DNA of 29,712 nt from a bacterium (GTDB taxonomy: Bacteria; CLD3; SB21): assembly GCA_013360215.1 (NCBI GenBank), contig JABWCP010000034.1, positions 1 to 29,712 on the forward strand. Direction: 5' to 3'. The position numbers and the translations under genes were made by a program. Each line of letters begins with the position of its first letter. Within the stretch, counting starts at the first letter, position 1. Shown here in pieces: positions 7,601 to 29,202 of this stretch. Below the pieces are notes generated by a model. The model did not search any database. It had not been told where the DNA came from and was given only the letters and a program-made list of their open reading frames with translations.

Positions 7601-7878
7601 AAAAATCCGTCCGATACATTGAGCCACGTAATACCGCCGTCTGTCGTTTTCCATACACCGCCGCCCGTTGCGCCAAAATAAAAGGTCAACGGATCGCGCG
7701 CGTCACCGGCAACCGCGACGGAACGGCCTCCGCGAAACGGACCGATTTGGCGCCATTCCATAGATTTGTACAACCCGGGTTCCATGCCGCTTGGCACGTC
7801 CGTTTTTTTCTGTGTGAAAAGAAACCCCGGCATCAGGATCATTAGCATACCGACAAAACACACATGTTTCCGATTCAT
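4699..7878 (-). CDS. Secreted BNR/Asp-box repeat protein (sortilin/VPS10-like beta-propeller, putative glycoside-hydrolase-like) with a C-terminal coiled-coil region
   Basis: 1059 aa. N-terminal signal peptide. Many S/TxDxGxTW Asp-box repeats (TTDGGITW, SLDAGKTW, TTDGGKTW, STDGGETW, SDDGGQTW, SVDGGRTF, STDEGQSW, SRDHGATW, TTDYGKTW, FNDGESW). The C-terminal ~150 aa are charged/helical. Confidence 0.75.
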   Translation of the reverse strand: MNRKHVCFVGMLMILMPGFLFTQKKTDVPSGMEPGLYKSMEWRQIGPFRGGRSVAVAGDARDPLTFYFGATGGGVWKTTDGGITWLNVSDGFFKTGAVGALSVAESDPNVIYAGMGETCIRGNITPGDGIYKSLDAGKTWSHTGLKETQFIGGIAIHPQNPDFVLVAAMGHIFGINKERGIYKTTDGGKTWKQTLYKDDKTGAVEVALDPRNPRIVYAALWEAHRNAWSMTSGGSGSGLYKSTDGGETWTDISKYPGLPKGVIGKIGISVSPVKDGLVWACIENDNGGVFRSDDGGQTWRRTNEERNLRQRAWYYSHIYADPVNSESVYALNVQFFKSVDGGRTFKNFETKHGDHHDLWIDPRNSERMIIADDGGAAVSYNGGVSWTDLDIPTAQFYHVSVDNQFPYNIYGAQQDNSTVRISSRTTSYGIDFADWSIVAGGESGYVVAHPSKPTVTFGGSYGGYLTRLDAATKQERNIAVWPDNPIGAGAADQKYRFQWTYPIVFSPHDKNTLYVTAQCVFRSTDEGQSWTVISGDLTRNDKSKQLSSGGPITKDNTSVEYYNTIFSLAESYKEKGVLWAGSDDGLIHISRDHGATWNNVTPKDFPEGLISIIEPSYMDGGVCYVAATRYKFDDLQPYLFKTTDYGKTWKRITQGIPNGAFTRVIRADPFRSGLLYAGTETGMFVSFNDGESWQSLQLNLPVVPIHDMAVQTREKDLVVATHGRSFWILDDLTPLHQIADAWAKQAGLLYKPRDAYRMDGFQYSEPGVPVGTNPPNGVLINYYLKEPPKEEVRLEFLNAEGNLITAYSSKKDKKGKTIESSKEFYEKKKEKRMDVVPADSGMNRFVWDMRYPDAAEVAGAIMWGGNIRGPKVVPGTYQVRMHIGSQSWTEKFEILKDPRVDTSPEDLKKQFELISGIHKKLNEVHEAVNRIRDVQKQITDYLNRIKDSTSATAMKKSAKPIQDSLSAIENELIQTKIKSSQDVLNYPMRLNNKLAALAADVASADVRPTDAQYAVYEDIRAKADRWLAQLKPILEKEIPRFNSEASLQTLPAINIDTKK

Positions 7879-7999
7879 AGATTCCTCACTATGCGTTGGG
7901 TTATTACTTACTCATATCGAATGATTGATTTGACGTTTCCGCGTTTAACCAAGCAGTCATCAGGTTTCTTGTCTTTACAAAATAAAAAAGCAAGAAAAC

Positions 8000-12910: not shown

Positions 12911-13918
12911 ATGTTTTCAACCATATTCATCATCATCGCCGGTACCGCCATCACCATTGCCGGTATCACCGCGTATAACAAAATCAAAGGCCTGATTCTC
13001 AGAAAACCCAAAGGCTTCCATCTTAACCTCGTCGAGTTTTTCCTCGTGCCGGTCGTGGCGCTTCTGATCGTTTTCGAGATATGGTCGCGCATCGTGGGTA
13101 CCCAGGAAGTGCACGCTCTGGAAATGAGCGGCAACATGCTCTGGGCGCTCGAACACGTCTCACGCGGCACCGGTAATTGGGGCGAACGTTTTTCTCTGCG
13201 CAATGTATTTGGTATCCGCGTCAGCGACGGCACGTACCTTTATAAAAAATCCATGGAAGGCAATTTTCAACGTATCGCTCAAAAAGAAAATATCGCCTGG
13301 TGCTGGGATGATGAAACGATCGTCGGTGTCGAATCTTCGACCGGCGATGTGAAATACACGATTGATCCCGATCGGTTTGAATCGTTACCGGCGTTTCGCG
13401 ATGGGGTGGCCGGTTTTGATATGAAAGCCGATGGTATCATACGTGCCACTAATAAATCCGGTCAGACGATAAACATTGACCCGCTCCATTTTACGGAAAT
13501 CGCTGCACCGCCGGATACAATAGCATCCGAACCCATTACGGCTTCGTCGGATTCTTTCAAGTTTGCTATGTCCGATACGACGAATGCGCAATTGGTCAAC
13601 GCGGCCGGCCAAATTATTTCTAAAGACATTTTAACGCACGGGCGGATTTTGCAAGTGGATCCCGTTCAAAAAATCATCATCACCCGGCATTATGAGAATA
13701 ACGATCCGCAGGATTTTATCATATCCGCGTACCTTTTTAACGGGACATTGCGCTGGCAGGTACGCTATGATCAACTCGGTGTTCGGCGTTTTTTCCTCAA
13801 AAAGAGCTTATTGGCGCACAGCCTGATCGCCGATGAACGGTTTATATTTTCAGCCGGCAACTTTGTCGTCGCATTGGATATTGCAACCGGCAGGCTTTTA
13901 TGGAAAACGGCGTTATAA
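12911..13918 (+). CDS. Hypothetical membrane-anchored protein (2 N-terminal TM helices, C-terminal PQQ-like beta-propeller-like region)
   Basis: 335 aa. Hydrophobic segments FIIIAGTAITIAGITAY and FFLVPVVALLIVFEIW. The C-terminal ATGRLLWKTAL resembles PQQ-repeat signatures. Confidence 0.5.
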   Translation: MFSTIFIIIAGTAITIAGITAYNKIKGLILRKPKGFHLNLVEFFLVPVVALLIVFEIWSRIVGTQEVHALEMSGNMLWALEHVSRGTGNWGERFSLRNVFGIRVSDGTYLYKKSMEGNFQRIAQKENIAWCWDDETIVGVESSTGDVKYTIDPDRFESLPAFRDGVAGFDMKADGIIRATNKSGQTINIDPLHFTEIAAPPDTIASEPITASSDSFKFAMSDTTNAQLVNAAGQIISKDILTHGRILQVDPVQKIIITRHYENNDPQDFIISAYLFNGTLRWQVRYDQLGVRRFFLKKSLLAHSLIADERFIFSAGNFVVALDIATGRLLWKTAL

Positions 13919-13958
13919 GAATACCCTTCTTTAAAGAAACTATGTTCGCAGATCGGAT

Positions 13959-13975
13959 CGATTATTTTATAATCG
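13959..13975. promoter_or_regulatory. Perfect palindrome CGATTAT-ttt-ATAATCG in the promoter region of the hydroxyproline operon (candidate operator)
   Basis: 7-bp inverted arms with a 3-bp spacer, 72 bp upstream of the first gene of the cluster (ATG 14047). A GGAGA Shine-Dalgarno-like element sits 8 bp before the ATG. Confidence 0.3.
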
Positions 13976-14046
13976 CGTTTTAAAAATTTATTGTCTTTCA
14001 AATATTCTGTGATATATTACACGTATATTACAAATGGAGATAAAAC

Positions 14047-14943
14047 ATGCATTCCACATGGCAAGGAATATTTCCTGCAACGACAACTAAATTTAAACCC
14101 GACTTCAGCGTAGATTATGCGGCGATCGAAAAGCATACGACGTGGATGCTGGAAGCCGGAATTCACGGCCTCGTTGTTCTGGGTTCTCTTGGAGAAAACC
14201 TCACCCTCACCGAAGACGAAAAACTCGCCATACTCAAAACGGCATGCAACGTTTGCGCCGGAAAAATCCCGGTCATTGCAACCGTGATGGAAACTTCCAC
14301 GGCCAAGGCTTGTGCTTTTGCAGAAAAAGCTGCACGCGCCGGAGCACAGGGATTCATGGTATTGCCCGGCGTTCCGTATCCGTCCGATGCCCGCGAAACG
14401 ATCGCACATTACCGCACGATCGCCAAAGCAACCGACATCCCGATCATGATCTACAATAATCCGGTGGCTTATAAAGTAGACATTACACCGGAAATGTTTG
14501 CGGAAATGGCGGACGAACCCCATTTTGTAGCGATCAAAGAATCGTCCGATAATATTAGACGCGTGACGGATATCTATAATCGCGTAGGAAACCGTTATCG
14601 GATTTTTTGCGGCGTGGATGATTTGGCTATGGAAGCGCTCACTCTTGGCGCGGACGGATGGTTGGCCGGGTTGGTAGTAGCTTTCCCGCATGAAACGGTA
14701 GCAATCTACAATCTCGTGCGCGAAGGTAAAATGCAACAAGCGCTCGAAATCTACCGATGGTTCATGCCGCTGCTGCATCTGGACGTAAACACCAAATTTG
14801 TCCAAAACATCAAACTGACGGAACAATTGGTCGGTGTCGGTTCGGAGATCGTTCGTGCACCACGATTGCCTTTGATCGGAGATGAGCGTGCGCGCGTCGA
14901 ACATATCGTCCGGGAAGCTTTAGCCAAGCGTCCGAAGCTCTGA
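14047..14943 (+). CDS. DapA/DHDPS-family lyase. In this context, 1-pyrroline-4-hydroxy-2-carboxylate (Pyr4H2C) deaminase of D-hydroxyproline catabolism.
   Basis: 298 aa. DHDPS/NAL fold with Schiff-base Lys in FVAIKESS, GLVVLGSLGE and IYNNP motifs. It is the first gene of a hydroxyproline catabolic cluster (epimerase, D-Hyp dehydrogenase and KGSA dehydrogenase follow). Confidence 0.7.
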   Translation: MHSTWQGIFPATTTKFKPDFSVDYAAIEKHTTWMLEAGIHGLVVLGSLGENLTLTEDEKLAILKTACNVCAGKIPVIATVMETSTAKACAFAEKAARAGAQGFMVLPGVPYPSDARETIAHYRTIAKATDIPIMIYNNPVAYKVDITPEMFAEMADEPHFVAIKESSDNIRRVTDIYNRVGNRYRIFCGVDDLAMEALTLGADGWLAGLVVAFPHETVAIYNLVREGKMQQALEIYRWFMPLLHLDVNTKFVQNIKLTEQLVGVGSEIVRAPRLPLIGDERARVEHIVREALAKRPKL

Positions 14944-15040: not shown

Positions 15041-16486
15041 ATGACCACCGATATCAAACGTTTGTATATCAACGGTTCATGGATTGACGGTGGCGATACG
15101 TTTGCCAATATCAATCCGTCCGATACGTCCGACCTGATCGCTCATTATGCCGTCGCCACGGCCGATCATGTACATGATGCCGTCGCATCCGCCAAACAAG
15201 CTTTCCCCGCATGGTCGCTTTCCACTCCGCAACAACGGTTTAATATTCTCGACGCCGTTGGTGGTGAAATTTTAGCACGGCAAGATGAACTAGGCCGTTT
15301 GCTGTCGCGAGAAGAAGGAAAAACATTGCCCGAAGGAATCGGCGAAGTGGTACGCGCCGCGATGATATTCAAATTTTTTGCCGGAGAAGCTCTGCGTGCA
15401 GGTGGCGAACGCATGGCCTCCGTACGACCGGGGGTTATGGTAGATATGATGCGCGAACCGCTCGGTGTCGTCGGACTCATCACGCCATGGAATTTTCCGA
15501 TCGCAATACCGGCGTGGAAAATAGCCCCGGCATTAGCATTCGGTAACTGCGTCGTTTTTAAACCGGCTGAATTAGTCCCCGGTTGTGCATGGGCTTTGAC
15601 CGAAATTTTACACAAAGCTGGAATTCCCGCCGGTGTGTTTAACTTACTCATGGGCAAAGGATCTGTCATCGGTCGTACGATCGTTGAGCATCCCGATGTA
15701 AATGCCATTAGCTTTACCGGCTCCGTCGGTGTCGGACGACAGGTTGCGGCACAGTGTGCGGCACGTTTGGCCAAAGTACAACTGGAAATGGGAGGGAAAA
15801 ATCCTCTCGTAATCTTAGATGATGCCGATCTGTCCGTCGCCGTCAACGCCGCCGTACAAGGTGCCTATTATTCCACAGGCCAGCGATGCACGGCGTCAAG
15901 CCGCCTTATCGTGACCGAAGGTATTCATGATGCATTTGTGAAAGCTCTGACGGACAAACTTCAAACCCTGCGCATAGATGATGCATTGGCGCAAGGCACG
16001 GATATCGGCCCGGTCGTTGATCTGACACAGATGAATAAAGACCTCGAATACATTACTATCGGCGCACAAGAGAATGCACATCTTGCGTTTGGCGGTGTCG
16101 CACTCGAACGCAGCAAAAAAGGTTTTTACCTGCAACCCGCGCTGTTTACAGAGACTACCTCTGCCATGCGAATCAACCGCGAAGAAATTTTCGGCCCGGT
16201 CGCGTCAGTGATACGCGTTAAAAATTATGATGAAGCCTTAGCTATGGCCAACGATACCCCGTTCGGTCTGACGTCGGGTATCTGCACGACTTCGCTTAAA
16301 TTCGCAGAACACTTCAAGCGGCACGCGCAGGCCGGCATGGTGATGATCAATCTGCCCACTGCCGGAGTGGATTATCATGTACCCTTCGGAGGACGCAAAG
16401 GCTCCAGCTATGGGGCGCGTGAACAAGGCACGTATGCACGCGAATTTTATACAACAGTAAAAACGGCATATACCTTTGCGGGGTAA
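15041..16486 (+). CDS. NAD(P)+-dependent aldehyde dehydrogenase, probable alpha-ketoglutaric semialdehyde dehydrogenase
   Basis: 481 aa. Catalytic Glu in LEMGGKNP and catalytic Cys in TGQRCTASSR. GSVGVG NAD-binding motif. Position in the Hyp cluster. Confidence 0.75.
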   Translation: MTTDIKRLYINGSWIDGGDTFANINPSDTSDLIAHYAVATADHVHDAVASAKQAFPAWSLSTPQQRFNILDAVGGEILARQDELGRLLSREEGKTLPEGIGEVVRAAMIFKFFAGEALRAGGERMASVRPGVMVDMMREPLGVVGLITPWNFPIAIPAWKIAPALAFGNCVVFKPAELVPGCAWALTEILHKAGIPAGVFNLLMGKGSVIGRTIVEHPDVNAISFTGSVGVGRQVAAQCAARLAKVQLEMGGKNPLVILDDADLSVAVNAAVQGAYYSTGQRCTASSRLIVTEGIHDAFVKALTDKLQTLRIDDALAQGTDIGPVVDLTQMNKDLEYITIGAQENAHLAFGGVALERSKKGFYLQPALFTETTSAMRINREEIFGPVASVIRVKNYDEALAMANDTPFGLTSGICTTSLKFAEHFKRHAQAGMVMINLPTAGVDYHVPFGGRKGSSYGAREQGTYAREFYTTVKTAYTFAG

Positions 16487-16488: not shown

Positions 16489-17127
16489 ATGAAAGTCAGT
16501 CTCACCGATCAGGCCTACGATAAAATCGAAGAGATGCTCGTCACGTTAAAATTCAAACCCGGAACGATCATATCCGAACCTGAAATCATCGAACGGATCG
16601 GCATGGGGCGCACTCCGGTCCGCGAGGCTTTATTGCGATTGGGCAAGGAACACATGATCAAAGCCATTCCGCGCAAAGGCATTTATATCAACGAAATCCA
16701 CATCACCGATCACATCGCGTTGATGGAAACGCGTCGGGCACTGGAACGCATTATTGCTATGCGTTCGGCCAATCGCGCTACGGCGGAACAGAAAAAAGAA
16801 CTGACCCGCCTCTCGCAACGTATTGTGGATGCCGCGAAAAAAAATGATATCGAAACGTTCATTCATGCCGACCATGCGTTTGACCTTATCATCAGTGAAG
16901 CCTGTCGCAATCCGTATGCCTCCGAAGCCTGTGCTTCGCTTCGCGCGCATTGCCGACGCTTCTGGTATCGTTTTCATCATGATCAGGATTTGGTAACTTC
17001 CGCTAAACTGCACGCTGAGGTTATGAGTGCTATCGTCGCAGGTAATGAAGTGCGCGCGGGTACCGCCTCCGACAAACTGATGGATTATCTGGATCAGATG
17101 ACGCGCGTTGCGATGAATAAAGGATAA
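16489..17127 (+). CDS. GntR-family transcriptional regulator (FadR subfamily, FCD ligand-binding domain)
   Basis: 212 aa. N-terminal winged HTH (ISEPEIIERIGMGRTPVREALLRLGKEHMI) and all-helical C-terminal domain. Its start is 2 nt after the ALDH stop (TAAcuAUG). Confidence 0.8.
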   Translation: MKVSLTDQAYDKIEEMLVTLKFKPGTIISEPEIIERIGMGRTPVREALLRLGKEHMIKAIPRKGIYINEIHITDHIALMETRRALERIIAMRSANRATAEQKKELTRLSQRIVDAAKKNDIETFIHADHAFDLIISEACRNPYASEACASLRAHCRRFWYRFHHDQDLVTSAKLHAEVMSAIVAGNEVRAGTASDKLMDYLDQMTRVAMNKG

Positions 17128-17204
17128 GAATTAGAATTTAGAATTTAGAATTTAGAATTTAGAATTTAGAATTTAGAATTTAGAATTTAGAATTTAGAAT
17201 TTAG
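17128..17204. repeat. Heptanucleotide tandem repeat (AATTTAG)n: 10 perfect copies plus one degenerate copy (gaattag), 77 bp
   Basis: Read directly: GAATTAG AATTTAG x10. It begins immediately after the GntR stop codon and ends 6 bp before the ATG of the 4-Hyp epimerase gene (17211). Confidence 0.95.
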
Positions 17205-17210
17205 GTCATT

Positions 17211-18212
17211 ATGTCACGACATACATTTTCATGCATTGATGCACATACCTGCGGCAATCCGGTACGCGTTGTTACCAGCGGCGGTCCGGCACTCTTAGGC
17301 GCTAATATGAGTGAACGCCGTCAGCACTTTCTTCGCGAATTCGACTGGATACGTAAAGCGCTTATGTTCGAACCGCGTGGTCACGATATGATGTCAGGCA
17401 GCATTTTTTATCCTCCGATTGATCCGGCCAATGATGTTGCGATATTATTTATCGAAACGAGCGGCTGCCTGCCGATGTGCGGTCATGGCACGATCGGCAC
17501 AGTCACTGTGCTCATCGAGCAACGTTTGATCACGCCGCGCACACCCGGCATCCTCCGCTTGGAAGTTCCCGCCGGTATCGTCGAGGCACATTATACAATC
17601 CAACATAATAAAGTGACCAGTGTTCGCATCGTCAATATCCCCTCGTTCCTCCATTCGCAAAATCTTACCGTCGAATGCCCCGATCTCGGCGAAATCACAC
17701 TGGATGTCGCATACGGTGGTAATTTTTATGCGATCGTGGATCCGCAAAAAAACTTTAAAGGTCTTGAGACGATTTCTGCCGGTGATGTTTTACGATGGAG
17801 TCCGATCGTTCGCCAGCGTATCAACGAAAAATATACTTTCACCCATCCCGAAAATCCCACGATTTGCGGCTGTTCCCATTTACAATGGACGGGCGCTCCG
17901 ACACAAAACGAAGCCCACGCCCGCAATGCCGTATTCTACGGTGATAAAGCAATTGACCGCTCGCCCTGCGGCACAGGCACTTCCGCGCGCATGGCCCAGT
18001 GGGCGGCCAAAGGAAAACTCAAAACCGGCGATACGTTTGTACATGAAAGTATCATCGGAAGTATGTTTCGCGGGCGCGTGGAACGCACAACGCATGTCGG
18101 TGATTACGATGCCATCGTTCCAAGCATCGAAGGATGGGCTTACGTCACAGGTTACAATACGATTTTTATAGATACGGATGATCCCTACGCATACGGTTTT
18201 CAAGTTATGTAA
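17211..18212 (+). CDS. Proline racemase-family enzyme with Cys/Cys catalytic pair: 4-hydroxyproline 2-epimerase (or proline racemase)
   Basis: 333 aa. First catalytic Cys in SGCLPMCGHG (Cys90, nt 17478-80). Second catalytic Cys in DRSPCGTGTSARMA (nt 17967-69). Confidence 0.75.
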   Translation: MSRHTFSCIDAHTCGNPVRVVTSGGPALLGANMSERRQHFLREFDWIRKALMFEPRGHDMMSGSIFYPPIDPANDVAILFIETSGCLPMCGHGTIGTVTVLIEQRLITPRTPGILRLEVPAGIVEAHYTIQHNKVTSVRIVNIPSFLHSQNLTVECPDLGEITLDVAYGGNFYAIVDPQKNFKGLETISAGDVLRWSPIVRQRINEKYTFTHPENPTICGCSHLQWTGAPTQNEAHARNAVFYGDKAIDRSPCGTGTSARMAQWAAKGKLKTGDTFVHESIIGSMFRGRVERTTHVGDYDAIVPSIEGWAYVTGYNTIFIDTDDPYAYGFQVM

Positions 18213-18257: not shown

Positions 18258-19517
18258 ATGAGTTCAAAAAAAACAGATGTCGCCATCATCGGCGGAGGTG
18301 TGATCGGATTATGTACAGCGTATTACCTCAATAAAGCCGGCATCTCGGTTACGATCATCGAAAAAAAACAGCCCGGCTTTGGTTCGTCTTTCGGCAACGC
18401 CGGTCTCATCAGTCCTAGTCATTTCGTTCCTCTGGCGGCGCCGGGTATGGTTGCCAAAGGTCTCAAATGGATGTTTGATGCAGAAAGTCCATTCTATATT
18501 CATCCGCGCCCGGACATTGATCTTATCACATGGCTGTGGAAGTTTATGCGCGCGAGTACCGATAAGCGCATGCGCCCGGCTATGCCGGTATTACGCGATA
18601 TGACATTAGCCAGTCAGCAGCTTTTTCATACCATTGCCAATGAAGAGCGTTTTGATTTTGCTCTGGAACAAAAAGGCCTCATTCTTTTGCATGATACCGC
18701 CGAAGGTGAAAAAGCGCATCATCACGAAGTAGCTTTAGCCAATGAAGTCGGCGTTACGGCACGTATGATCTCGCGGGAGGAGATTCACCAAATGCAACCC
18801 GGCGTAAAAGTGCGCGCCACGGGCGGCGTATTTTTTCCCCAAGACGGGCATCTCATCCCCGATCAGTTTAACGCCAAGCTCACGTCGTTATTGCAAACAC
18901 GCGGTGTGCAGTTTATGAACGAAACCGATGTATTTGGCTTTGTCCCCAACGGCAAAGCGGCGGGACATCTGCGCACCAGCGAGGGTGACATCCATGCGAA
19001 TCAGTATGTCGTGGCGGCCGGCGCATGGACGTCCGATCTGCTCTACGAAATCGGTATTGCACTCCCGGTGCAAGCCGGTAAAGGCTATAGCGTGACCGTT
19101 AAGCGCGACAAGAATAATCTTACGATTCCGATCATTTGTACCGAAGCGCGTGTAGCCATTACCCCAATGGGCGATACGATTCGTTACGCCGGTACGCTGG
19201 AGTTGAGTGGTAACGATCTGACCATCAATCCGCGTCGCGTGAAAGCGATACTCCGGGCCGCAGACCGCTATCTTGAAAATTTTGATGCACAATCGTCGGA
19301 TATACAAACAGCCTGGGCCGGCCTTCGCCCGTGTTCACCGGACGGATTGCCTTTCATCGGCCGATTTAAGCGCACTCCCAACGTAATCGCCGCGACCGGC
19401 CATGCGATGCTCGGTATTACTCTAGGACCGATTACCGGGAAACTGGTCTCTGAAATTGTTACCAATGCACCCCAAACCATTGTATCACCGTTATTGGATG
19501 CAGACCGCTATGCCTGA
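18258..19517 (+). CDS. FAD-dependent oxidoreductase (DadA/DAO-like), probable D-hydroxyproline dehydrogenase
   Basis: 419 aa. N-terminal Rossmann dinucleotide motif VAIIGGGVIGLCTAYYL…IIEK. DAO-family C-terminal motif (GHAMLGITLGP). Confidence 0.75.
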   Translation: MSSKKTDVAIIGGGVIGLCTAYYLNKAGISVTIIEKKQPGFGSSFGNAGLISPSHFVPLAAPGMVAKGLKWMFDAESPFYIHPRPDIDLITWLWKFMRASTDKRMRPAMPVLRDMTLASQQLFHTIANEERFDFALEQKGLILLHDTAEGEKAHHHEVALANEVGVTARMISREEIHQMQPGVKVRATGGVFFPQDGHLIPDQFNAKLTSLLQTRGVQFMNETDVFGFVPNGKAAGHLRTSEGDIHANQYVVAAGAWTSDLLYEIGIALPVQAGKGYSVTVKRDKNNLTIPIICTEARVAITPMGDTIRYAGTLELSGNDLTINPRRVKAILRAADRYLENFDAQSSDIQTAWAGLRPCSPDGLPFIGRFKRTPNVIAATGHAMLGITLGPITGKLVSEIVTNAPQTIVSPLLDADRYA

Positions 19518-20577
19518 AAAAAAATCGGTATTTGAAAAACGCCTGCGCGCTATGCAGCGTTGGGAAGCGCCCGCATCGTGGCGGCGTATCGAAACGATCG
19601 AAGCGCATACCGGCGGTGAACCGCTCCGCATCATCATATCAGGATTACCGCCGATCAAAGGCCAAACCATTCTTCAGAAACGGGCGTACCTCAAGACGCA
19701 TCTTGATCATCTCCGTACGGCGCTGATGTGGGAACCGCGCGGCCATGCCGATATGTACGGTTGTATCATCACTCCGCCGGTGGAAAAAAATTCCGATTTC
19801 GGTGTGATTTTTTTGCATAACGAAGGTTATTCCACCATGTGCGGCCACGGCATCATCGCTGTTACCAAAGCGGCCGTAGAAACCGGACTTATTCATGCAC
19901 GCGGTACGAAAGTCACACTGCGCATTGATTCGCCCGCAGGACTGATCACTTCCATAGCCCAAATCCGGCGCGGCAAAGTGCAATCCGTTCGTTTTCTCAA
20001 TGTTCCATCGTTTGTACAAACTTTGGATGCCGTCGTCGACATACCGGGATTGGGACGCATACGTTATGATCTTGCGTACGGCGGTGCATTTTACGCTTTT
20101 GTGCACGCCGAAGATGCCGGTGTAACGATGGATGCGGCAGGATATCGCGGCCTTATCGAACGCGGCATGATGATCAAACGCGCTGTTATGCGGAGCGTAG
20201 CCATGCAACACCCATTCGAATCGGAGCTCAATTTTTTATACGGTACGATTTTCACCGGCCCGGGACATACGACCGGCGCAGATTCCCGCAATGTCTGTAT
20301 TTTTGCCGACGGCGAAGTGGATCGAAGCCCGACAGGAACGGGAGTCAGCGCGCGAATGGCTATTCACCATGCGCGCGGTGCGCTTCGCACCGGTGAACCG
20401 ATGGCCATCGAAAGCATTACAGGCAGTCGCTTTGTGTGCCGCGTTCATGCGACGACGACGTATGGTAACTACCCGGCGGTGATCCCCGCTATCGAAGGCA
20501 CGGCGCATCTCTGCGGAAAAAGCTCCTGGATTATAGATCCTGCCGATTCGCTGCAGGACGGTTTTTTCTTCCGTTAA
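19510..20577 (+). CDS. Proline racemase-family enzyme with Cys/Thr pair: trans-3-hydroxy-L-proline dehydratase
   Basis: ATG at 19510 overlaps the upstream stop (cuAUGccUGA). An alternative ATG at 19498 (in-frame, 4 codons upstream) is possible. The ORF-track start at 19456 is probably too long. First catalytic Cys retained (GYSTMCGHG). Second catalytic residue is Thr (DRSPTGTGVSARMA, ACA at 20332-34), the known discriminator of T3LHyp dehydratases versus epimerases. Confidence 0.7.
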   Translation: MPEKKSVFEKRLRAMQRWEAPASWRRIETIEAHTGGEPLRIIISGLPPIKGQTILQKRAYLKTHLDHLRTALMWEPRGHADMYGCIITPPVEKNSDFGVIFLHNEGYSTMCGHGIIAVTKAAVETGLIHARGTKVTLRIDSPAGLITSIAQIRRGKVQSVRFLNVPSFVQTLDAVVDIPGLGRIRYDLAYGGAFYAFVHAEDAGVTMDAAGYRGLIERGMMIKRAVMRSVAMQHPFESELNFLYGTIFTGPGHTTGADSRNVCIFADGEVDRSPTGTGVSARMAIHHARGALRTGEPMAIESITGSRFVCRVHATTTYGNYPAVIPAIEGTAHLCGKSSWIIDPADSLQDGFFFR

Positions 20578-20582: not shown

Positions 20583-21551
20583 ATGCGATTTATTCCAAGC
20601 GACACACTGCGTGAGTTGATCACTATGCCTGAAGCGATAACGGCAATGCAATCGGCATTTTCTGCATTATCCGATGGGTCGGCTGTTGTGCCGCTTCGAA
20701 CGACCCTTGACTTTCCCGGTTCCGACGCCCGTGCGCTGATCATGCCGGCTTATCATTCATCATCTCGGTACTTCACGACCAAAATAGTGACGGTATGTCC
20801 GACCAATGCCGCGCGCCATCTTCCGCTCATCCACGGTACACTGATCGTTACGGACGGATCCACAGGAAAAACACTGGCACTGATGGATGCAGAGTGGATT
20901 ACGGCTTTGCGGACTGGTGCGGCTTCCGGACTGGCCACGGAATGGATGGCTCTTCCCGATGCGCATACATTAGGAGTTTTCGGGACAGGTGCGCAGGCCT
21001 ACGAACAGGTGCGTGGCGTCATGAGTGTACGGAAATTAACACGGATTATTATATTTGGCCGCGATCCCCAAAAAACAACTACGTTTTGTAAAACTGTTTC
21101 AAATCAATTTGCAATTCCTTGTTTTCCCGCTCAAGCGCCGCAAGAGGTTTCCCAATGTGATATCCTCTGCTGCGCAACCAATGCGCATAACCCGGTTTTT
21201 GAAGATAAGTATCTCACGCACGGTACGCACATCAATGGTATCGGCGCATTCAAACCCGCAATGCGTGAAATACCATCAGCGACTATAGCACGCGCTCGCA
21301 TTATCGTAGATCAACGCGCATCCGCATGGCGTGAAGCCGGCGACTTGATCCTCGCTCAAAAAGATGGAGTAGTCGCTGAAGATTGCATTGCCGGCGAAAT
21401 CGGCGAAGTCGTCACGCATAAAACTTCCGGACGTATATCCCGAGAACAAATCACCATCTTCAAGTCCGTAGGTAATGCGATTCAGGATAATGTAATTGCA
21501 TCCATGGCTTATGAACGTGCCCTCAAAGCGGGAATAGGAACGGAGATTTGA
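20583..21551 (+). CDS. Ornithine cyclodeaminase/mu-crystallin-family protein, probable delta1-pyrroline-2-carboxylate reductase
   Basis: 322 aa. OCD/mu-crystallin fold with NAD(P) Rossmann motif GVFGTGAQA. Located 5 bp downstream of the Cys/Thr dehydratase gene. Confidence 0.65.
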   Translation: MRFIPSDTLRELITMPEAITAMQSAFSALSDGSAVVPLRTTLDFPGSDARALIMPAYHSSSRYFTTKIVTVCPTNAARHLPLIHGTLIVTDGSTGKTLALMDAEWITALRTGAASGLATEWMALPDAHTLGVFGTGAQAYEQVRGVMSVRKLTRIIIFGRDPQKTTTFCKTVSNQFAIPCFPAQAPQEVSQCDILCCATNAHNPVFEDKYLTHGTHINGIGAFKPAMREIPSATIARARIIVDQRASAWREAGDLILAQKDGVVAEDCIAGEIGEVVTHKTSGRISREQITIFKSVGNAIQDNVIASMAYERALKAGIGTEI

Positions 21552-21754
21552 ACCTACGATTAGTATTAGAAAACAACTTGTTCATATTCGAAATATATAT
21601 TTGTTTTGACGTGCCGTAGACCATGACCTCATAATTTCCACATGTAACCAACGCTGATGCTAAAAACATGACCTGTATGACCTATACTTAATGGGTTATT
21701 CACGTACGAATAGACCAATTCGGCGAAACCTTTATTCTTATTTATATTTTCGCT

Positions 21755-22363
21755 CTAGCCTATATGAAAAGACGGGAAGTTATTAGGATTAGAACCTTTC
21801 CCACCTTCACCATAATCATGATCTATATTAAATAAGTTATATTTAATTATTCCATACATAACACTTGTTTGTGAGCTGCGCTTCGAGATAATTAATCCGG
21901 GGGAAATACCCGAGGCAAGTTTATCCGTTCGTTCAGAATAAAATAAAAAATAATTAGTATAGTTCAGCAAAAGAGACATTTGCATTTTCGAATTATCAGG
22001 AGTAACTCTATATTTTAACATTCCTCTTAAGCCAAAATCACAACTTTTTATATTCGCACCCAACACAACTTTAGAGAGTAACACCGGTGCGGCATACCCA
22101 CTCCACAAACTTGCCCCTACATTTAGGCGGTCACTTATACCATACGATAACCTAGGTTCAAGTATTGCGGGTGTAATCGCTTTTACAAAATGATCTCTTG
22201 GTTTTTTTGACCATTCTTCTGGACCACCTGAAGCGCTAGTCAGTACACTGAATTTCCCACGATTTAATGTTTCCGCATCTTGGTGTTCAATTATACTTAT
22301 ACCGCCACAACTAATTTGAGGTAAGGAAAAAATAATTATACAGCATTTAACAATTTTATTCAT
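21755..22363 (-). CDS. Secreted hypothetical protein, outer-membrane beta-barrel-like
   Basis: 202 aa. Signal peptide plus alternating hydrophobic pattern. The ATG lies 36 bp beyond the distal end of the last repeat element (22399). No matching element follows its stop. Confidence 0.45.
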   Translation of the reverse strand: MNKIVKCCIIIFSLPQISCGGISIIEHQDAETLNRGKFSVLTSASGGPEEWSKKPRDHFVKAITPAILEPRLSYGISDRLNVGASLWSGYAAPVLLSKVVLGANIKSCDFGLRGMLKYRVTPDNSKMQMSLLLNYTNYFLFYSERTDKLASGISPGLIISKRSSQTSVMYGIIKYNLFNIDHDYGEGGKGSNPNNFPSFHIG

Positions 22364-22398
22364 CGTTGCCCCATTTTAATAGAATATAACCGCATGGT

Positions 22399-22590
22399 AC
22401 ATAACGGATCGCGACAATCTGCGATGGTGCGGTATAAGGTTTCGAAAATTTCAAACCACTCGTGTCTCGCGCCACGCTGTATGTGAAGTGCGAACTCGAT
22501 TTATTATTTGACATTATTAAGATTACCCTTAAAATCCCATTTTAAATATTGTACGAGCCCTGAATGAACAGATGGACCGCGAATTATTCG
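22399..22590 (-). repeat. attC-like element copy 1 (degenerate 5' stem arm)
   Basis: acATAACggatcgcgac … cgcgccacg … gaacagatggaccgcgAATTATtcg. It is the most distal copy. Confidence 0.5.
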
Positions 22591-23403
22591 TTGGACTTAT
22601 CAGTTTTTAATAATTTTGTCCTTACGAAAATCTTGTAAGATGCTTTTCTGAAGAAAAACCCGTCACCTTTAGTGAATACACCATCGGAATAAATGGACAT
22701 TTAATGCTCCATATTCTATTTTGATAGTTTTGATTGCATATTTGGCTTCCCATATCACTGCATCACTTTTAATCGGTTGCAACATAAATAAAAAAAACTT
22801 CTTGTTTCTCTACCGCTAGAAGTGATACTTATGAAGTAGCGCCGGTATATTTATCTGTATACGTTCTAATTCCAATGTTTTCAATTGCAGTATTATCAGA
22901 TTTTGTATGGTAATAGTCAGCAGTTTCCATACTTAAAATTAGATCTGCACAAACTCGTGTACAATTTCCTCAACTGTTTGACTGATTAATAATCTATTTC
23001 CTTCTATAATCTTTAATTCAATTTGGTAGGTATTTAGCATTTCTTCTAATTTTTTTAAACGCACCATGAAATTCCCTATTTATAAACTCTATCTACATGT
23101 TTACGGGTACTTTTTTATCAGGTAGATCCCACAATTTCTTTAATTAAGATTTAAAATTACCTCGCGCACAGGAAATAACTAAAAATAGAAATGTAAAAAA
23201 AATATTTTTCAAAAGACTTTCAATTTTTAAACGTTCTGTGACGTTTGCATAACTTTTCATAGTATTAGATGCGCCATTGTTCGAGGTATCTTTATCTTTA
23301 AACTTTCTACTCTTGGTACTCGCATCTATCTGAACCGAGATATGTCATCAAATATCGCAGTCTGGGGAAACAAATATAGAGCATTTCGATTTCATTGCCG
23401 TTA

Positions 23404-24030
23404 TCATGGGGTTATGATCGGCGTATCCGCACTGAATAAAAGTCCAATAGAAATTGACCCTGACCATAAATTTTTTAATTGATTTGCCGAAACTGAGAAA
23501 ACAAGAGAAGCCTTGGAAGTCAGTTGTTTAGCGCTTGAAATACCCAAAAAAACACCAGTTTGTGGTTTAGCGCTACGTTCTCCACTCAAAATCATCACAA
23601 CCCCATATCCAAGTTCCGGCGCCAAACGAAAATCATTTCCTTCAGTAATATCTACGGACATACCACCGCTAAAGTTAATTGATTGAGGCATAGCAAATTT
23701 TGCACGTTTCCATTTCAAAAAAGCAAAGTCAACAAAAGGATGTAGGCGCCCTGAGGCAGAATACATTTCAATTTCTGGGGAAAAATAACTAACTTCTTTT
23801 TCATCAGATTTCAATGTTCCACCGACAATGCTGAATTCGATACCTTCTTTGAAGCTAATCGATAAATATCCTGCTTTTGACGAGGAATTTTTACTTCCAT
23901 ACGCATGAACACCGCCCATACTCATGACAGAACCATCACAATGCGAAACTAGCCGCCTTTGAGCGCTAGAAGGGGTGATTAAGAACTGAAGCAGAGCCGT
24001 TAAAAACAATAGTTTTTTCATATTCAACAT
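23404..24030 (-). CDS. Cassette ORF: secreted outer-membrane beta-barrel-like protein (208 aa)
   Basis: Signal peptide MKKLLFLTALLQFLITPSSAQ followed by amphipathic beta-strand pattern. Confidence 0.5.
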   Translation of the reverse strand: MLNMKKLLFLTALLQFLITPSSAQRRLVSHCDGSVMSMGGVHAYGSKNSSSKAGYLSISFKEGIEFSIVGGTLKSDEKEVSYFSPEIEMYSASGRLHPFVDFAFLKWKRAKFAMPQSINFSGGMSVDITEGNDFRLAPELGYGVVMILSGERSAKPQTGVFLGISSAKQLTSKASLVFSVSANQLKNLWSGSISIGLLFSADTPIITP

Positions 24031-24107
24031 TCCAAAGGTTACTAAAATGAGGCATCACTCAAAACATCATGCTACAAATGTTGTACCAGTAAACAAGTAA
24101 ATCCAAT

Positions 24108-24240
24108 CGTCTAATTCTACTTGCTCAACGCGCCACAATGTATTCGAACTGTAAACTCAAATTATTATTTAAAAAACAATCACTTGAAAAATCTTATTTT
24201 CTGTGTTCCGCAATCAGTGAGCAAACATCTGTGGTTATGC
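24108..24240 (-). repeat. attC-like element copy 2 (truncated and degenerate)
   Basis: cGTCTAAttc…cgcgccacaatgtattcgaact…ttattatttaaaaa…cagtgagcaaacatctgtgGTTATGC. It aligns to the 3' two-thirds of copy 10. Confidence 0.4.
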
Positions 24241-24432
24241 TATTCAATGCTGCTTTGATTTAGTATCCAAACAATAATCCACATTCAACTGCCTCAACAA
24301 ATCTGTTTTTATGATTCCTTAATGATATCAATATTTTATGTTTTTTTATCATTAACATTGACTTTTTCTATCTTTCCATAATTCCAAGCCCAAAAGTACT
24401 CCCAATATTGGCATTTGATTACCATTAAACGT

Positions 24433-24553
24433 ATATAACTGTAGCGGCATGCTGCAAGTAACTATTATTTGTTAAAACTTTAACCATTCCTTGTAAAAAC
24501 CTTACTTTCAATACTTCACGAGGAGCATGCGAACAGATGGGTGCGGGTTAGAG
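24433..24553 (-). repeat. attC-like element copy 3 (short variant lacking the central hairpin)
   Basis: ATATAAC-tgtagcggcatgctgcaagtaactattatttgttaaaac…tactttcaatacttcacgaggagcatgcgaacagatgggtgcgGGTTAGAG. Confidence 0.5.
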
Positions 24554-24679
24554 ACATTACAGATTTATTTATTCATCTCATTTTTTTGCAGCTGTTGCAA
24601 TATTCAATCCTGGGGCTAAATTAGCACCTATCACAGCTCGTTGCGGCCAATGATTTGGATCTGAACCAATTCATTGTTT

Positions 24680-24925
24680 TCATAGATTATAAAAAACGCC
24701 ACGGCTTTCTATACGACTCAATATAATTTGTAATGATAGAATATGAGTTTTGTGCGAACCGGTCTCTTCCAATGGCTTTTCAAGTTGATATAAACACGCC
24801 TCAACTTCTTTGTCAAAATCTGGAATTTTAGCTACTGTCGATACAACCCATATAATATTGTCATGCGAAACCATTCGCGAGCGACCAGGCACACTTGCGT
24901 TCCATCTTTTAATTTTATTTTCCAT
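24680..24925 (-). CDS. Cassette ORF: hypothetical protein (81 aa)
   Basis: Only ORF in the 24554..24993 cassette. Start is 70 bp from the upstream element end. Confidence 0.4.
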   Translation of the reverse strand: MENKIKRWNASVPGRSRMVSHDNIIWVVSTVAKIPDFDKEVEACLYQLEKPLEETGSHKTHILSLQIILSRIESRGVFYNL

Positions 24926-24993
24926 TCAATCCTGTCGACAGCAATATATTACTCTATCAATTTAATCAGCTTTTGTTAATTAGTATTGAAGCT

Positions 24994-25182
24994 AAAAGTC
25001 TTCGGTATCCACGGTTCTGTAGCGGAGGTATTTAAAAACTTCAAATCTCTCGCGCCTCACGCCACAGTATCGGCACAATGCGGGTTACAATTATTTGCTA
25101 AAATTCTAATCAGTATCTATAAAAATCTTATTATCCATATTCTACGAGCATCGTGCGAACGGATCACTAGAAGATTAGACGC
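24994..25182 (-). repeat. attC-like element copy 4 (degenerate ends)
   Basis: …cggtatccacggttctgtagcggaggta…ctctcgcgcctcacgccacagtatcggcacaatgcgggttacaattatttg…ctacgagcatcgtgcgaacggatcac…GATTAGAC. Abuts the stop of ORF 25191..25757. Confidence 0.5.
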
Positions 25183-25190
25183 ACATCAAT

Positions 25191-25757
25191 TTATTTCAAT
25201 TTCAATCTCAAACCAATTCCTAGTGCAACATGGTTATATTTTATGTTCATCTTCTCATCCTCAAACTTCCATCGCGCTTTATGCCGTTGATAACCAATAT
25301 CAAAATTTAAAAAAAAGAAGTTTAAACCCGTAGAAATCCCAAAATATGAACCATCTTTGATCGTTCCTCCCCCTTCATAAGAAACATTATTAGATATTAA
25401 TGAAACCCCATATTGAAAGCCAAAATACACGTGGTTCATGTGGTCCGATAACTTAATTTGCAGGGCACCATAAAATGGTCTTACGCTAAATTTTCCTCCC
25501 CATCTTTTAGTCGCCATTGTGGTACTTTTGCTCATACCGCCACCTATAATAAAATATTTGTTTACCGGAAAGAGCATTTCACCTGAAAATTGTATTGAAT
25601 GTACTTTCTCAGTTAATGGCTCTTTTAAATCCCAAAAGTTTGTTGACTCTGATATATGTTTTCCATCAATATCTTTTGAGATTCTTAAAAAGATTTCTTG
25701 AGCATTGATTGAAGATGCTAAAGATGCGATTAAAAGTGTCGAGATTACTCTATTCAT
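25191..25757 (-). CDS. Cassette ORF: secreted outer-membrane beta-barrel-like protein (188 aa)
   Basis: Signal peptide MNRVISTLLIASLASSINAQE. Alternating hydrophobic residues. C-terminal …ALGIGLRLKLK. Confidence 0.5.
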   Translation of the reverse strand: MNRVISTLLIASLASSINAQEIFLRISKDIDGKHISESTNFWDLKEPLTEKVHSIQFSGEMLFPVNKYFIIGGGMSKSTTMATKRWGGKFSVRPFYGALQIKLSDHMNHVYFGFQYGVSLISNNVSYEGGGTIKDGSYFGISTGLNFFFLNFDIGYQRHKARWKFEDEKMNIKYNHVALGIGLRLKLK

Positions 25758-25793
25758 TCTTAGTTTTAAATATAAACATGCAAATTGATGTGC

Positions 25794-25960
25794 GTCTAAC
25801 GTTGCCTGTATCTGCGGTGCTGCGGCGTGGGGTATCTGAAAATTTTCGACTATTAGCCCCTCGCACCGCGATATGTGCCGAGACGCGTGCCCAGCTATCG
25901 TATCCGGGAGAATCTAATATTACACGTATCGAGATCGCTGCCGCTATCATGGAGTTAGGC
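25794..25960 (-). repeat. attC-like element copy 5 (textbook ends: GCCTAAC proximal and GTTAGAC distal on the cassette strand)
   Basis: + strand: GTCTAACgttgcctgtatctgcggtgctgcggcgtgggg…cccctcgcaccgcg…GTTAGGC. GTTAGGC at 25954-60 lies 5 bp from the stop (25947-49) of ORF 25947..26417. The interior is divergent from the other copies while the stem is retained with indels. Confidence 0.6.
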
Positions 25961-26417
25961 GTCTGCACAGCGCTTTTATTTTAAAAATATCACATAAATT
26001 AAACTTTGATTCATCAAAATCATTGTACTTATACTCTGCAAAAACAGCAATTTTTTGTTTGCCAACTAAAATACTATCAATATATAATGTATTATTTGTA
26101 ATACTAAACTCTACTCCTGAATCAAATGTATTTTCTTCGCTATTCCAACTCCTTAATAAACCATTTTCAACTTTATACGAGGTCTCCCCTTCATAATCAA
26201 TACAATCACCCTCATCATCATAACTCCATTCTTTTTGAGTATCGGCTGTAAACTGCATGTAAAATTCGCCCTCGTAAAGAGACTTGTTTTGCTTGTATAA
26301 CTTCCATTTTGTATTTGGAATAGATGCAATGTTGTTTTCTTTATCATCACTACAGGCTTGCAAAGCACTAAAAATTATAACGATTGTTGCGAGGCTTTTG
26401 ATAAGGAACGACTTCAT
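25947..26417 (-). CDS. Cassette ORF: lipoprotein (156 aa)
   Basis: Signal peptide with lipobox (FSALQACSD). Confidence 0.5.
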   Translation of the reverse strand: MKSFLIKSLATIVIIFSALQACSDDKENNIASIPNTKWKLYKQNKSLYEGEFYMQFTADTQKEWSYDDEGDCIDYEGETSYKVENGLLRSWNSEENTFDSGVEFSITNNTLYIDSILVGKQKIAVFAEYKYNDFDESKFNLCDIFKIKALCRRLTP

Positions 26418-26517
26418 ACAATCTCCTAATTTAAAACTATTTATATAGTGGAATTTCGATCATAAATACATTTGAGTATGTGTTTAGTAAATGGATTGGC
26501 GGTCAATGCTGCATGAC

Positions 26518-26708
26518 GCCTAACGGTCTCCGGTATCTGCGGTGCTGTGGCGCGAGGTATATGAAAAACTCAAACCTCTCGTACCTCGCTCCACAGTATC
26601 GGCACGATGCGAGTTACAATTATCGTTAGAAATCTAATCATTACCTACAAAAACCCTGTTTTCAATAATCTAAGAGCAGCAAGCGAACGGATGGGCCGCG
26701 TGTTATTC
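26518..26708 (-). repeat. attC-like element copy 6
   Basis: GCCTAACggtctccggtatctgcggtgctgtggcgcgaggta…cctcgctccacagtatcggcacgatgcgag…ctaagagcagcaagcgaacggatgggccgcgtGTTATTC. It is 18 bp from the stop of ORF 26726..27253. Confidence 0.6.
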
Positions 26709-26725
26709 GAAGACCCGCGTTCACT

Positions 26726-27253
26726 TTACGAATTATCTTGCCTGATCCACCAACTGCTGAGAATAGGAAGCATCACGATCTGACCCACGGCGGCCCAGAC
26801 ACCCGGTAAAAGTGCGACTTCAAAGTATTCAACAGCGTTTGACTCAGGCACATAAGTCAAGAGAGCACAGACAATAAATGCTATTCTTCCAAAGATTAGA
26901 CCCATCAATACACAAGCAAACTTATTTATGCTTGTTTTTTCTCGCATCAATCCTATTGACAATCCATATATCATAAGTTCAACCGTCATTGACGGTAAGA
27001 TACTAGGCAATGGATAACCAGAAACAATATAACTGAGTATTGGTGCAAAAATGCCTGCAATTGTTCCTGCACGCCAACCGTATACCAAGCCAGCTAAAAT
27101 GATTGGCCAATGCATCGGTAGCATTATTCTTACCGGTGCACCAATGAAATGCATTCCTATTGGCAATAGAACGGCGACCAAAACAAATATGATTTGTAGA
27201 GTGTATGCTTTCACTCCTTGCAAAGCTAAGGTCTGTGCTTCACTTGCTGACAT
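26726..27253 (-). CDS. Cassette ORF: small polytopic membrane protein (ECF-transporter S-component/BioY-like, tentative)
   Basis: 175 aa with ~5 hydrophobic helices. Gly-rich helix motif AGLVYGWRAGTIAGIFAPILSYIVSGYP resembles S-component signatures. Confidence 0.4.
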   Translation of the reverse strand: MSASEAQTLALQGVKAYTLQIIFVLVAVLLPIGMHFIGAPVRIMLPMHWPIILAGLVYGWRAGTIAGIFAPILSYIVSGYPLPSILPSMTVELMIYGLSIGLMREKTSINKFACVLMGLIFGRIAFIVCALLTYVPESNAVEYFEVALLPGVWAAVGQIVMLPILSSWWIRQDNS

Positions 27254-27303
27254 GCAATCCTTTCTATCTCTTTTTAGGGATTAAATTGTGTTAAGCGGCT
27301 TTC

Positions 27304-27494
27304 GGATAACGGTCTCCGGTATCCGCGGTGCTGTGGCGCGAGGTACCTGAAAACATAAAATCTCTCGTGCCTCGCGCCACAGTATCGGCATGCTGCGAGT
27401 TACAATTATTTATTAGAAGTCTACTCATTACCTATAAAAAGCTTATTTTCAACACTCTACGAGCATCGTGCGAACGGATCACCGGATGGTTATC
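27304..27494 (-). repeat. attC-like element copy 7
   Basis: GGATAACggtctccggtatccgcggtgctgtggcgcgaggtacctgaaaac…cctcgcgccacagtatcggcatgctgcgag…gaacggatcaccggatgGTTATC. Followed by only 102 bp before copy 8. Confidence 0.6.
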
Positions 27495-27596
27495 ACCTTC
27501 ACAAGCCATTAATCCAAATAATAATATCACAAGTAGGTTGGAAAAATAGAATCTCATAAAATCCTCTCTTAGTTTTATTAGAAATTGAGAGCTATC

Positions 27597-27789
27597 AGAT
27601 AACGGTTCGCGACTATCTGCGGTGCTGTGGCGCAGGGTACCTGAAAACTTTTACTATTAGTTCCCTGCGCCACAGTATCGGCATGCTGCGAGTAACTATT
27701 ATTTATTAAAAATCTAATCATTCTTTGTAAAAAGCCTACTTTCAATACTCTACGAGCAGCATGCGAACAGATGGGTCGCGTTTTATATG
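27597..27789 (-). repeat. attC-like element copy 8 (stem with compensatory changes GCAGGG/CCCTGC)
   Basis: AGATAACggttcgcgactatctgcggtgctgtggcgcagggtacctgaaaac…ccctgcgccacagtatcggcatgctgcgag…cagcatgcgaacagatgggtcgcgTTTTATATG. Confidence 0.6.
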
Positions 27790-29200: not shown

Positions 29201-29202
29201 GA

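Follow-up and report, generated by a model that had tools for sequence, protein, structure and literature searches.

The contig analysed here, JABWCP010000034.1 of assembly GCA_013360215.1 (positions 1 to 29,712 of the forward strand, the whole of this stretch being called the window below), comes from a bacterium of the GTDB lineage CLD3; SB21. In it, a tandem array of the heptanucleotide AATTTAG fills almost the entire space between the gene of a GntR-family regulator and that of a 4-hydroxyproline epimerase, two members of a hydroxyproline operon. The array is polymorphic among very close strains and absent from sister species. The reading that we favour, with a probability of roughly 0.55, is that it is a hypermutable variable-number tandem repeat (VNTR) generated by slippage within a single GntR-autoregulated operon, where it would serve as a tolerated spacer with a probably small and graded influence on the four genes that follow it.

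A heptanucleotide array of variable length

The description given in a first pass over the letters of the contig (the sequence-only reading) was borne out by the sequence and by Tandem Repeats Finder (TRF): the array measures 77 bp, is made up of one degenerate and ten perfect 7-bp units, and extends from the base after the TAA of the regulator gene to 6 nt before the epimerase ATG. On the + strand, GAATTAG at 17128-17134 is followed by ten perfect AATTTAG units at 17135-17204, which form the hypervariable core of the VNTR. The GntR stop codon (17125-17127) adjoins the array on one side, and GTCATT (17205-17210) separates it from the ATG at 17211 on the other, the whole junction reading ...AAAGGATAA GAATTAG (AATTTAG)x10 GTCATT ATG.... 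TRF places the array at 17127-17204 (period 7, 11.3 copies, 98% matches, score 149) and ranks it by far the strongest tandem repeat of the window, the next-best score in the 29.7 kb being 50. Head-to-tail perfect copies of a 1-9-bp unit, far above chance, mark it as a simple sequence repeat or VNTR. A two-unit probe that allowed up to 2 mismatches gave 10 matches, all of them within the array, against 0.61 expected from shuffles. A search for other (AATTTAG)n tracts, as had been suggested, found no second array by TRF and probe in the window and none in the 12-kb sister loci. The unit is 86% A+T. The first copy, G plus AATTAG, is AATTTAG minus one T; since the first unit is perfect in all other strains (GAATTTAG...), the degenerate copy represents a one-T deletion specific to the sub-lineage of the window.

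The length of the array differs among close relatives. In all contigs with other alleles of the flanking proteins the junction is TAA-G-(AATTTAG)n-GTCATT-ATG, and complete junctions give n=11 (ERZ27268168), n=12 (ERZ27268127), n=13 (ERZ27268158), n=14 (ERZ27268126) and n=16 (ERZ27268130), next to n=10+1 in the lineage of the window (with GCA_023150995.1 and GCA_026647985.1). These copy numbers were taken from metagenome consensus contigs compared between samples, not from reads; the variation between samples is clear, and contig breaks within the array are expected from k-mer length alone. Flanks are 98-99.9% identical across the allelic series, those of the other-strain contigs differing from one another by 0.1-1% and those of the window lineage lying about 1.7-2% away. 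Each GntR protein allele was seen with several copy numbers, which indicates that copy number changes much faster than point substitution. The strain comparison proposed as a check thus upheld the suspicion of a slippage-prone microsatellite. Four MEGAHIT contigs (ERZ27268160, 155, 179 and 148) have n=4, which may be an assembly collapse, as 30 periodic bases are exactly the minimal repeat path at k=29. These contigs do not form a clade, and one of them (L018) differs from an n=14 contig (L023) at 3 of 2000 flank positions. In five scaffolds of metagenome-assembled genomes (MAGs) at NCBI the tract holds a gap of 100 N beside 62 periodic bases, and a sixth MAG contig ends after 62 periodic bases. 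This number is k55+7, the signature of an unresolved repeat loop, and puts n at 9 or more in those MAGs.

The same structure was recovered independently of the window. GCA_023150995.1 and GCA_026647985.1 are 100% identical to it over 6.5-7 kb and have the same 10+1 array including the T deletion, and the same junction is present in MEGAHIT contigs, scaffolded NCBI MAGs and Logan contigs from many samples. Logan unitigs (k=31) always break in the tract with k-1 periodic bases; such breaks fit a tandem repeat longer than k and therefore provide independent evidence of a long array in the reads of many samples. Megablast of the locus against E. coli genomes gave no match, and a scan of JGI metagenomes with the GntR protein gave one further, partial contig of the species. 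The nearest relatives of this protein outside the species are about 60% identical, one of them on a contig labelled phylum CLD3; for the epimerase, the next relatives are on CLD3-type contigs (79-80% identity), followed by Bacteroidota and Ignavibacteria MAGs (74-77%). Judged by these relatives, the host probably belongs to CLD3 or to an adjacent lineage of the FCB group.

The origin of the array is suggested by the sister lineages. The closest of them, L174 (83% nucleotide identity over 2 kb, with a 94% identical epimerase and almost the same C-terminus of GntR), lacks the array. The spacer of L174 consists of 55 nt of unique, non-repetitive sequence, CGAAGAAGATTGAATTCGGAATTCATGTTTTTTTGATTATGTAACAAAGGTTCTC, which holds the two-copy proto-repeat TGAATTC GGAATTC and ends in AAGGT-N5-ATG, the counterpart of TAGGT-N5-ATG in the window. 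More distant sisters with the same gene order have no array either, one having a 34-nt spacer with two GAATTT motifs and another a spacer of 9 nt. The array is thus a derived, species-specific expansion, and growth in one lineage from a short proto-repeat, such as the two-copy heptamer of L174, is one of the features expected of a VNTR. We propose that the stretch from the GntR stop to the epimerase ribosome-binding site (RBS) was a dispensable spacer in which a GAATTY-type proto-repeat grew by slipped-strand expansion, and that the expanded array replaced the whole original spacer; it has overwritten all sequence from the stop codon up to the Shine-Dalgarno-like motif. A mobile-element remnant or a target-site duplication was considered and rejected, as only repeat lies between stop and Shine-Dalgarno-like motif and L174 has its proto-repeat at the same place.

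A mosaic contig deserves separate mention (L172:1-400; ERZ27268179 k141_571086). Over the first ~300 bp of its epimerase gene the identity to the window is 71-84%, rising to 97-100% over the remainder, and upstream lies a different heptamer-based inverted repeat (ATGAATT ATGAGTT ATGAATT ... AACTCAT AATTCAT). Two origins can account for this contig: a chimera made in assembly, or recombination in a related lineage whose same junction also carries heptamers.

The operon setting and competing explanations

That the array lies in a hydroxyproline operon, with the GntR gene upstream and the epimerase and three more genes downstream, had been suggested from the sequence and was confirmed by NCBIfam matches. 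All genes are on the + strand of the window. The first is a dihydrodipicolinate synthase (DHDPS)-like gene (14047-14943), followed by an alpha-ketoglutaric semialdehyde dehydrogenase-like gene (15041-16486), which stops 2 nt ahead of the start of the FCD-type GntR-family regulator gene (16489..17127), the three being taken from the list of open reading frames (ORFs) and NCBIfam. The array is followed by the genes of the 4-hydroxyproline epimerase (17211..18212; NF010578, 598 bits), a D-amino-acid dehydrogenase-like protein (18258-19517), a trans-3-hydroxy-L-proline dehydratase-like protein (19510-20577) and a reductase of the ornithine cyclodeaminase family (20583-21551). The best promoter-like site of the region, TTCGCA-17-TATAAT at 13945..13973 (10/12 in a consensus scan, + strand), stands 5' of the first gene and is, by its sequence, likely to be the operon promoter. 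Just 3' of it, at 14008..14021 (+), lies the near-palindrome TGTGATATATTACA, a candidate GntR operator conserved 5' of the DHDPS-like gene in sister species: L032 has an exact copy at the same place, and L035 has the related TATAATATATTACA there. The candidate is 3.1 kb upstream of the array and has no counterpart near it. In the window it is followed by a related half-site, CGTATATTACA (14008-14032 for the two together), and a similar near-palindrome, TGTAGTATATTGCA, is found at 4630-4643, in the intergenic space 5' of an SBP_bac_5 (peptide-binding protein) gene. The likeness of TGTGATATATTACA to TGTAGTATATTGCA may reflect a shared regulon.

We suggest that the array is transcribed within one long GntR-autoregulated operon, from the promoter and operator 5' of the DHDPS-like gene, and that the transcript carries it as an AU-rich intercistronic spacer of variable length. 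No intrinsic terminator was predicted at the array. The 9-nt spacer of one sister is too short for a promoter, which points to ancestral co-transcription of the epimerase with the regulator, and the unrelated sister spacers of 9, 34 and 55 nt suggest that neither an internal promoter nor a spacing-sensitive element was an ancestral requirement. Such a spacer could be tolerated for three reasons. The stop codon and the AGGT-N5-ATG initiation context are kept: a weak Shine-Dalgarno-like AGGT (17203-17206), the AG of which is supplied by the last repeat unit, and the remainder of GTCATT occupy 17203..17210 (+), as in the AAGGT-N5-ATG of L174. The spacer is also untranslatable, with stops in all frames. 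Every unit has TAG on the + strand and TAA on the - strand and 7 is not a multiple of 3, so that each of the six frames meets a stop within three units; in the list for the window, no ORF of at least 60 aa spans the tract. Finally, the sense RNA may pair with itself and loop out, leaving the predicted accessibility of the start region constant with n; the predicted unpaired probability of the RBS/start window is 0.42-0.47 for n=0 to 24 and 0.42 from n=4 up. Copy number drifts fast and, on this reading, near-neutrally, through 10-16 units and possibly 4 and more than 16, and any effect on the four downstream genes would be graded and modest, not on/off.

The possibility of a phase-variation switch acting through promoter spacing, raised by the sequence-only reading, was in part contradicted. 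The tract does not lie between a unique -35 and -10, and the hexamers that it contains are at a constant 17 nt. The anatomy of a contingency locus is likewise missing, there being no ORF and no -35/-10 or operator/promoter pair spaced by the tract. Judging from the sequence, an on/off switch is mechanistically unlikely, since no reading frame and no unique promoter/operator spacing would be affected.

Several points weigh against the idea of a tolerated spacer. Two sub-lineages that are about 2% apart both retain arrays of at least 10 perfect units, a length at the top of the range seen for this unit elsewhere, and the persistence of long arrays could reflect selection for length. The sigma-70-like sites and the RNA rod predicted for the array (see below) could have real effects. 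Co-transcription itself is argued only from how closely the genes are spaced, from the absence of any terminator prediction and from the sister species.

An unlikely alternative is that the array is a selected expression rheostat working through promoters born of the repeat. About four units would make up one promoter, TTTAGA-17-TAGAAT, and about n-4 overlapping promoters would arise from n units, so that copy number sets the level; with an AT-rich upstream flank, these would give the genes of the epimerase, dehydrogenase, dehydratase and reductase a basal transcription that does not depend on the operator. A consensus scan does detect six overlapping sigma-70-like sites at 17137..17200 (+), one per register (TTTAGA-17 nt-TAGAAT, 9/12), and a seventh, hybrid site, TTGCGA-18 nt-TAGAAT (9/12, + strand), from 17108 at the end of the GntR gene to 17137. 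The hexamers share the register of the repeat, so that a change of copy number leaves the 17 nt between them untouched and alters only how many sites there are (~n-4). The host seems to use classical -35/-10 hexamers, in that the conserved operon promoter region shows TTGACA/TATAAT-like hexamers; GGAG-type Shine-Dalgarno motifs occur 5' of many window genes. An earlier suggestion that the unit resembles the TAnnTTTG -7 element of Bacteroidota promoters fares poorly, as TAGAATTT fits only 4/6 of the specified positions and the signals of the host are not of the Bacteroidota type. With no operator-like motif near the array, transcription from these sites would escape GntR control, and long arrays are kept in all sampled strains. 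However, the sites are consensus matches only, with a -35 that lacks the G of TTGACA, and transcripts from the last registers would, from the coordinates, have leaders of ~4-11 nt. The sister spacers (9-55 nt) are unrelated, and one of 9 nt holds no promoter, which argues that this family of operons can do without one. An allele of 4 units, should it be real, would contain no complete site.

The array could also act at the RNA level, as an AU/GU rod resembling that of the hmw genes of Haemophilus influenzae, although we consider this distinctly improbable. Such a rod would be open to cleavage by a double-strand-specific RNase or would block exonucleases, uncoupling the upstream regulator half of the operon mRNA from the downstream enzyme half in stability or translation, and its length, set by copy number, would tune the ratio of the two. 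Of the structured leader proposed from the sequence, what stands, and weakly, is a modest self-paired rod predicted by folding of the sense strand at 17118..17220 (+). In the model, GAAUUU pairs with GAAUUU (4 A-U and 2 G.U pairs) in 6-bp helices separated by A.A mismatches, and the closing helix joins AUAA of the GntR stop region to UUAU of cAUUAUG at the epimerase start. The sense RNA folds at -15.8 kcal/mol vs -10.2 +/- 2.3 for shuffles and gains ~1.8 kcal/mol in predicted stability with each added unit; in the antisense RNA the array is predicted to be fully unpaired. A precedent exists in the transcribed heptamer hairpin of H. influenzae, which is cut by RNase III and whose alleles have at least 11 repeats (PMC12721329), and in other genomes, among the matches listed, structured sense arrays follow stops and unstructured antisense arrays precede starts. 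On the other hand, the rod is weak, consisting of A-U and G.U pairs only with a mismatch every 7 nt; z is only -2.44, and 3/200 shuffles reach an equally good fold. It would be destabilised further by translating ribosomes and by competition among many alternative pairing registers. Identical units leave no covariation to assess, and Rfam gave no match for the whole window at gathering thresholds and none over 16900-17450 at E <= 1. A hairpin or cruciform of the DNA was rejected, the single strand folding at -1.3 kcal/mol, no better than shuffles.

It is very improbable that the array is a repeated protein-binding site, whether an operator for GntR or a set of sites for another DNA- or RNA-binding protein of, for example, the S1/Csp type. 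Identical 7-nt sites ending 6 nt from a start codon do recall the TAACTGA repeats, for which a post-transcriptional regulator has been proposed (PMC4679880). Yet the repeat has neither the GT...AC symmetry of a GntR/FadR-type operator nor any C, and the repeated operator once suggested is contradicted by the conserved GntR-type palindrome TGTGATATATTACA, which stands 5' of the first operon gene in this and two sister species (14008-14021 in the window) and not near the array. Moreover, the 29.7 kb contain just this one array and the sister loci, L174 included, contain none, with no sign of a regulon. Hardly credible, lastly, is an assembly or sequencing artefact: De Bruijn assemblers break, or may collapse, within the tract, at k=29 the shortest path through the repeat is exactly what the four n=4 contigs contain, and gaps of 100 N interrupt several scaffolds, but the junction recurs across assemblers, projects and many samples, two NCBI assemblies share the 10+1 structure with its diagnostic T deletion, and neither n=12 nor the 10+1 of the window is a minimal-path value for common k lists.

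Neighbouring sequences

Other features of the window and its sister loci may be recorded here. Directly 5' of the operon promoter is an ORF of 335 aa (12911-13918), conserved in all strains of the species, that has no confident family match, only weak ones to PA2928 and PQQ_2. From 21600 to 29712 the GC content is 34-40%, vs 45-55% in the remainder of the window, and the ORFs are short and almost without exception on the - strand; most of them lack a Pfam match, unlike an ECF-transporter S-component-like protein at 26726-27253. This low-GC region may be an acquired island. It contains a perfect two-copy 12-bp direct repeat, ACACATCTGTAT (29267-29291, TRF score 50), which overlaps the - strand ORFs listed at 29103-29318 and 29203-29673.

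Many of the gaps between genes of the hydroxyproline operon in the sister CLD3-type species are taken up by palindromic elements that resemble repetitive extragenic palindromes (REP) or miniature inverted-repeat transposable elements (MITE). The gaps concerned are L032:1171-1385, 3549-3953, 5391-6000 and 7654-7884 and L035:1263-1572, 3904-4201 and 5639-6000, and the recurrent motifs are CTTTCTTTTGC...GCAAAAGAAAG and GCGAACTCGGGTTT...GGCATTTTTATCAAGGCC. The gaps of 360-610 bp that lie 5' of GntR in sister species were considered as promoter regions and rejected, being filled by such elements.

AATTTAG arrays in other genomes and known repeat systems

When one genome per species was scanned for (AATTTAG)3, at least 120 stretches matched (L039-L158, 855 kb), the locus of the present species not being among those listed. 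Filamentous cyanobacteria (Okeania, Moorena, Symploca, Caldora, Trichodesmium, Nostocales) account for the majority of the matches listed; the others come from Flavobacterium and other Bacteroidota, several CPR groups, Acidobacteriota, Armatimonadota and Planctomycetota. In these matches the length of perfect runs is 3-12 units and only 3/127 reach at least 10, which places the array of the window at the long extreme. Period 7 dominates the 855 kb listed, with 364 TRF arrays of 104 different units, while every other period has 42 arrays or fewer; the genomes of the listed stretches are generally rich in heptamer arrays, unlike the window and its sister loci. Inverted pairs of heptamer arrays, which would form long hairpins, also occur among them (e.g. 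L040, L067). A full-text literature search for the AATTTAG heptamer in any rotation found no bacterial repeat paper. The remark that long non-triplet microsatellites are rare in bacterial genomes needs qualifying: the AATTTAG unit is present in many phyla, and heptamers are described in one paper, which cites a 2007 survey, as the over-represented class of bacterial repeat, for which polymerase slippage is the proposed cause (PMC4692102).

The listed matches also show a polarity. Between co-directional ORFs, sense arrays adjoin the upstream stop in 16/17 informative cases, as in the window, and start within ~0-13 nt of that codon (e.g. L094, L098, L119, L129); in 18/21 cases an antisense array ends 4-20 nt short of the downstream ATG, which lacks a Shine-Dalgarno motif (e.g. 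L063, L075, L121, L145). The contrast is significant over the 39 listed loci (Fisher p = 1.3e-6), which have no common flank homology and are thus independent, with counts that depend on crude ORF calls. This polarity fits selection at the RNA level, the structured orientation being tolerated at 3' ends and the unstructured one at translation starts. The array of the window is unusual in that it adjoins both a stop and a start.

We regard as quite doubtful the broader proposition that the array is kept by selection as a tunable intercistronic element (RNA rod, repeat-born promoters or both) and that (AATTTAG)n represents a cross-phylum, strand-polar class of gene-boundary repeats. If it were true, a contingency rheostat would exist in a catabolic operon of a free-living, uncultured bacterium of the FCB group, setting the expression of the regulator and lower-pathway enzymes relative to that of the first-step hydroxyproline enzymes; structured sense copies would follow stops, and unstructured antisense copies would form Shine-Dalgarno-independent leaders before starts. 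To our knowledge, work on bacterial variation driven by repeats has dealt almost solely with host-adapted pathogens and with genes for surface structures or restriction-modification systems. The present locus offers three stages of such a repeat in a metabolic operon of an uncultured environmental lineage, namely the proto-repeat of L174, the full replacement of a spacer and an allelic series of 10-16 units. The array could serve as a natural strain marker in metagenomes and as a test case for the regulatory consequences of heptamers, a class over-represented but least understood. The recurrence of AATTTAG in many phyla, with strand polarity at gene ends, may be the more general lead.

Among known repeat systems, that of nadA in Neisseria meningitidis resembles the array in being a non-coding repeat of variable copy number 5' of a regulated gene, at a locus with a ligand-responsive repressor. 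The (TAAA)n tract of nadA lies between repressor operators and distal promoter elements, the spacing of which is set by copy number (PMC2791445), whereas no operator or promoter element flanks the AATTTAG tract, the only promoter-like hexamers of which belong to the repeat itself and keep a fixed spacing. In Beggiatoaceae, Cyanobacteria and Bacteroidetes, TAACTGA repeats stand a few nucleotides 5' of start codons (MacGregor 2015, PMC4679880), and an S1/Csp-type factor has been proposed as their post-transcriptional regulator (PMC4679880). They too are 7-nt intergenic direct repeats that contain stop codons and stand near starts with a weak RBS, and Cyanobacteria and Bacteroidota are common to both; the present array ends 6 nt ahead of the ATG with AGGT as the sole Shine-Dalgarno-like element, a TAACTGA-like position. 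TAACTGA differs, however, in having mostly 2-6 copies at ~170 loci per genome and no predicted fold, as opposed to a single array of 10-16 copies in 29.7 kb with the potential for self-pairing.

The heptamers of Xanthomonas (GGGAATC), Nostoc (GGGGA(T/C)T) and the cyanobacterial STRR type are intergenic with strong length variation, and a GGGGATT repeat sits between the operon genes pecE and pecF (PMC4692102). The likeness is plain: an intergenic 7-bp array, variable in length between close relatives and in one case intercistronic. Those units are G-rich and quadruplex-capable and occur in many arrays per genome, whereas AATTTAG cannot form a quadruplex. In hmw1A/hmw2A of H. influenzae, (ATCTTTC)n is transcribed and forms a 5'-UTR hairpin cut by RNase III, with 11-63 copies (PMC12721329, PMC8262952); natural alleles have at least 11 repeats, and an inverse relation of repeat number to expression was demonstrated (PMC12721329). 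As in hmw, the present repeat is a perfect, polymorphic 7-bp repeat outside coding sequence and 5' of a gene (10-16 or more copies here), its RNA is predicted to form a long hairpin of ~10 repeats, and the effect on expression, known for hmw and expected here, would be graded instead of arising from a frameshift. Transcription is demonstrated for hmw and argued from context for the array. The hmw repeats pair with a separate G-rich arm, whereas AATTTAG would pair only with itself, and weakly; hmw encodes a surface adhesin of a host-adapted pathogen, and the array stands between cistrons of a catabolic operon in an uncultured environmental bacterium. The array belongs to the known class of intergenic heptamer VNTRs and is closest in behaviour to hmw, in an unusual setting.

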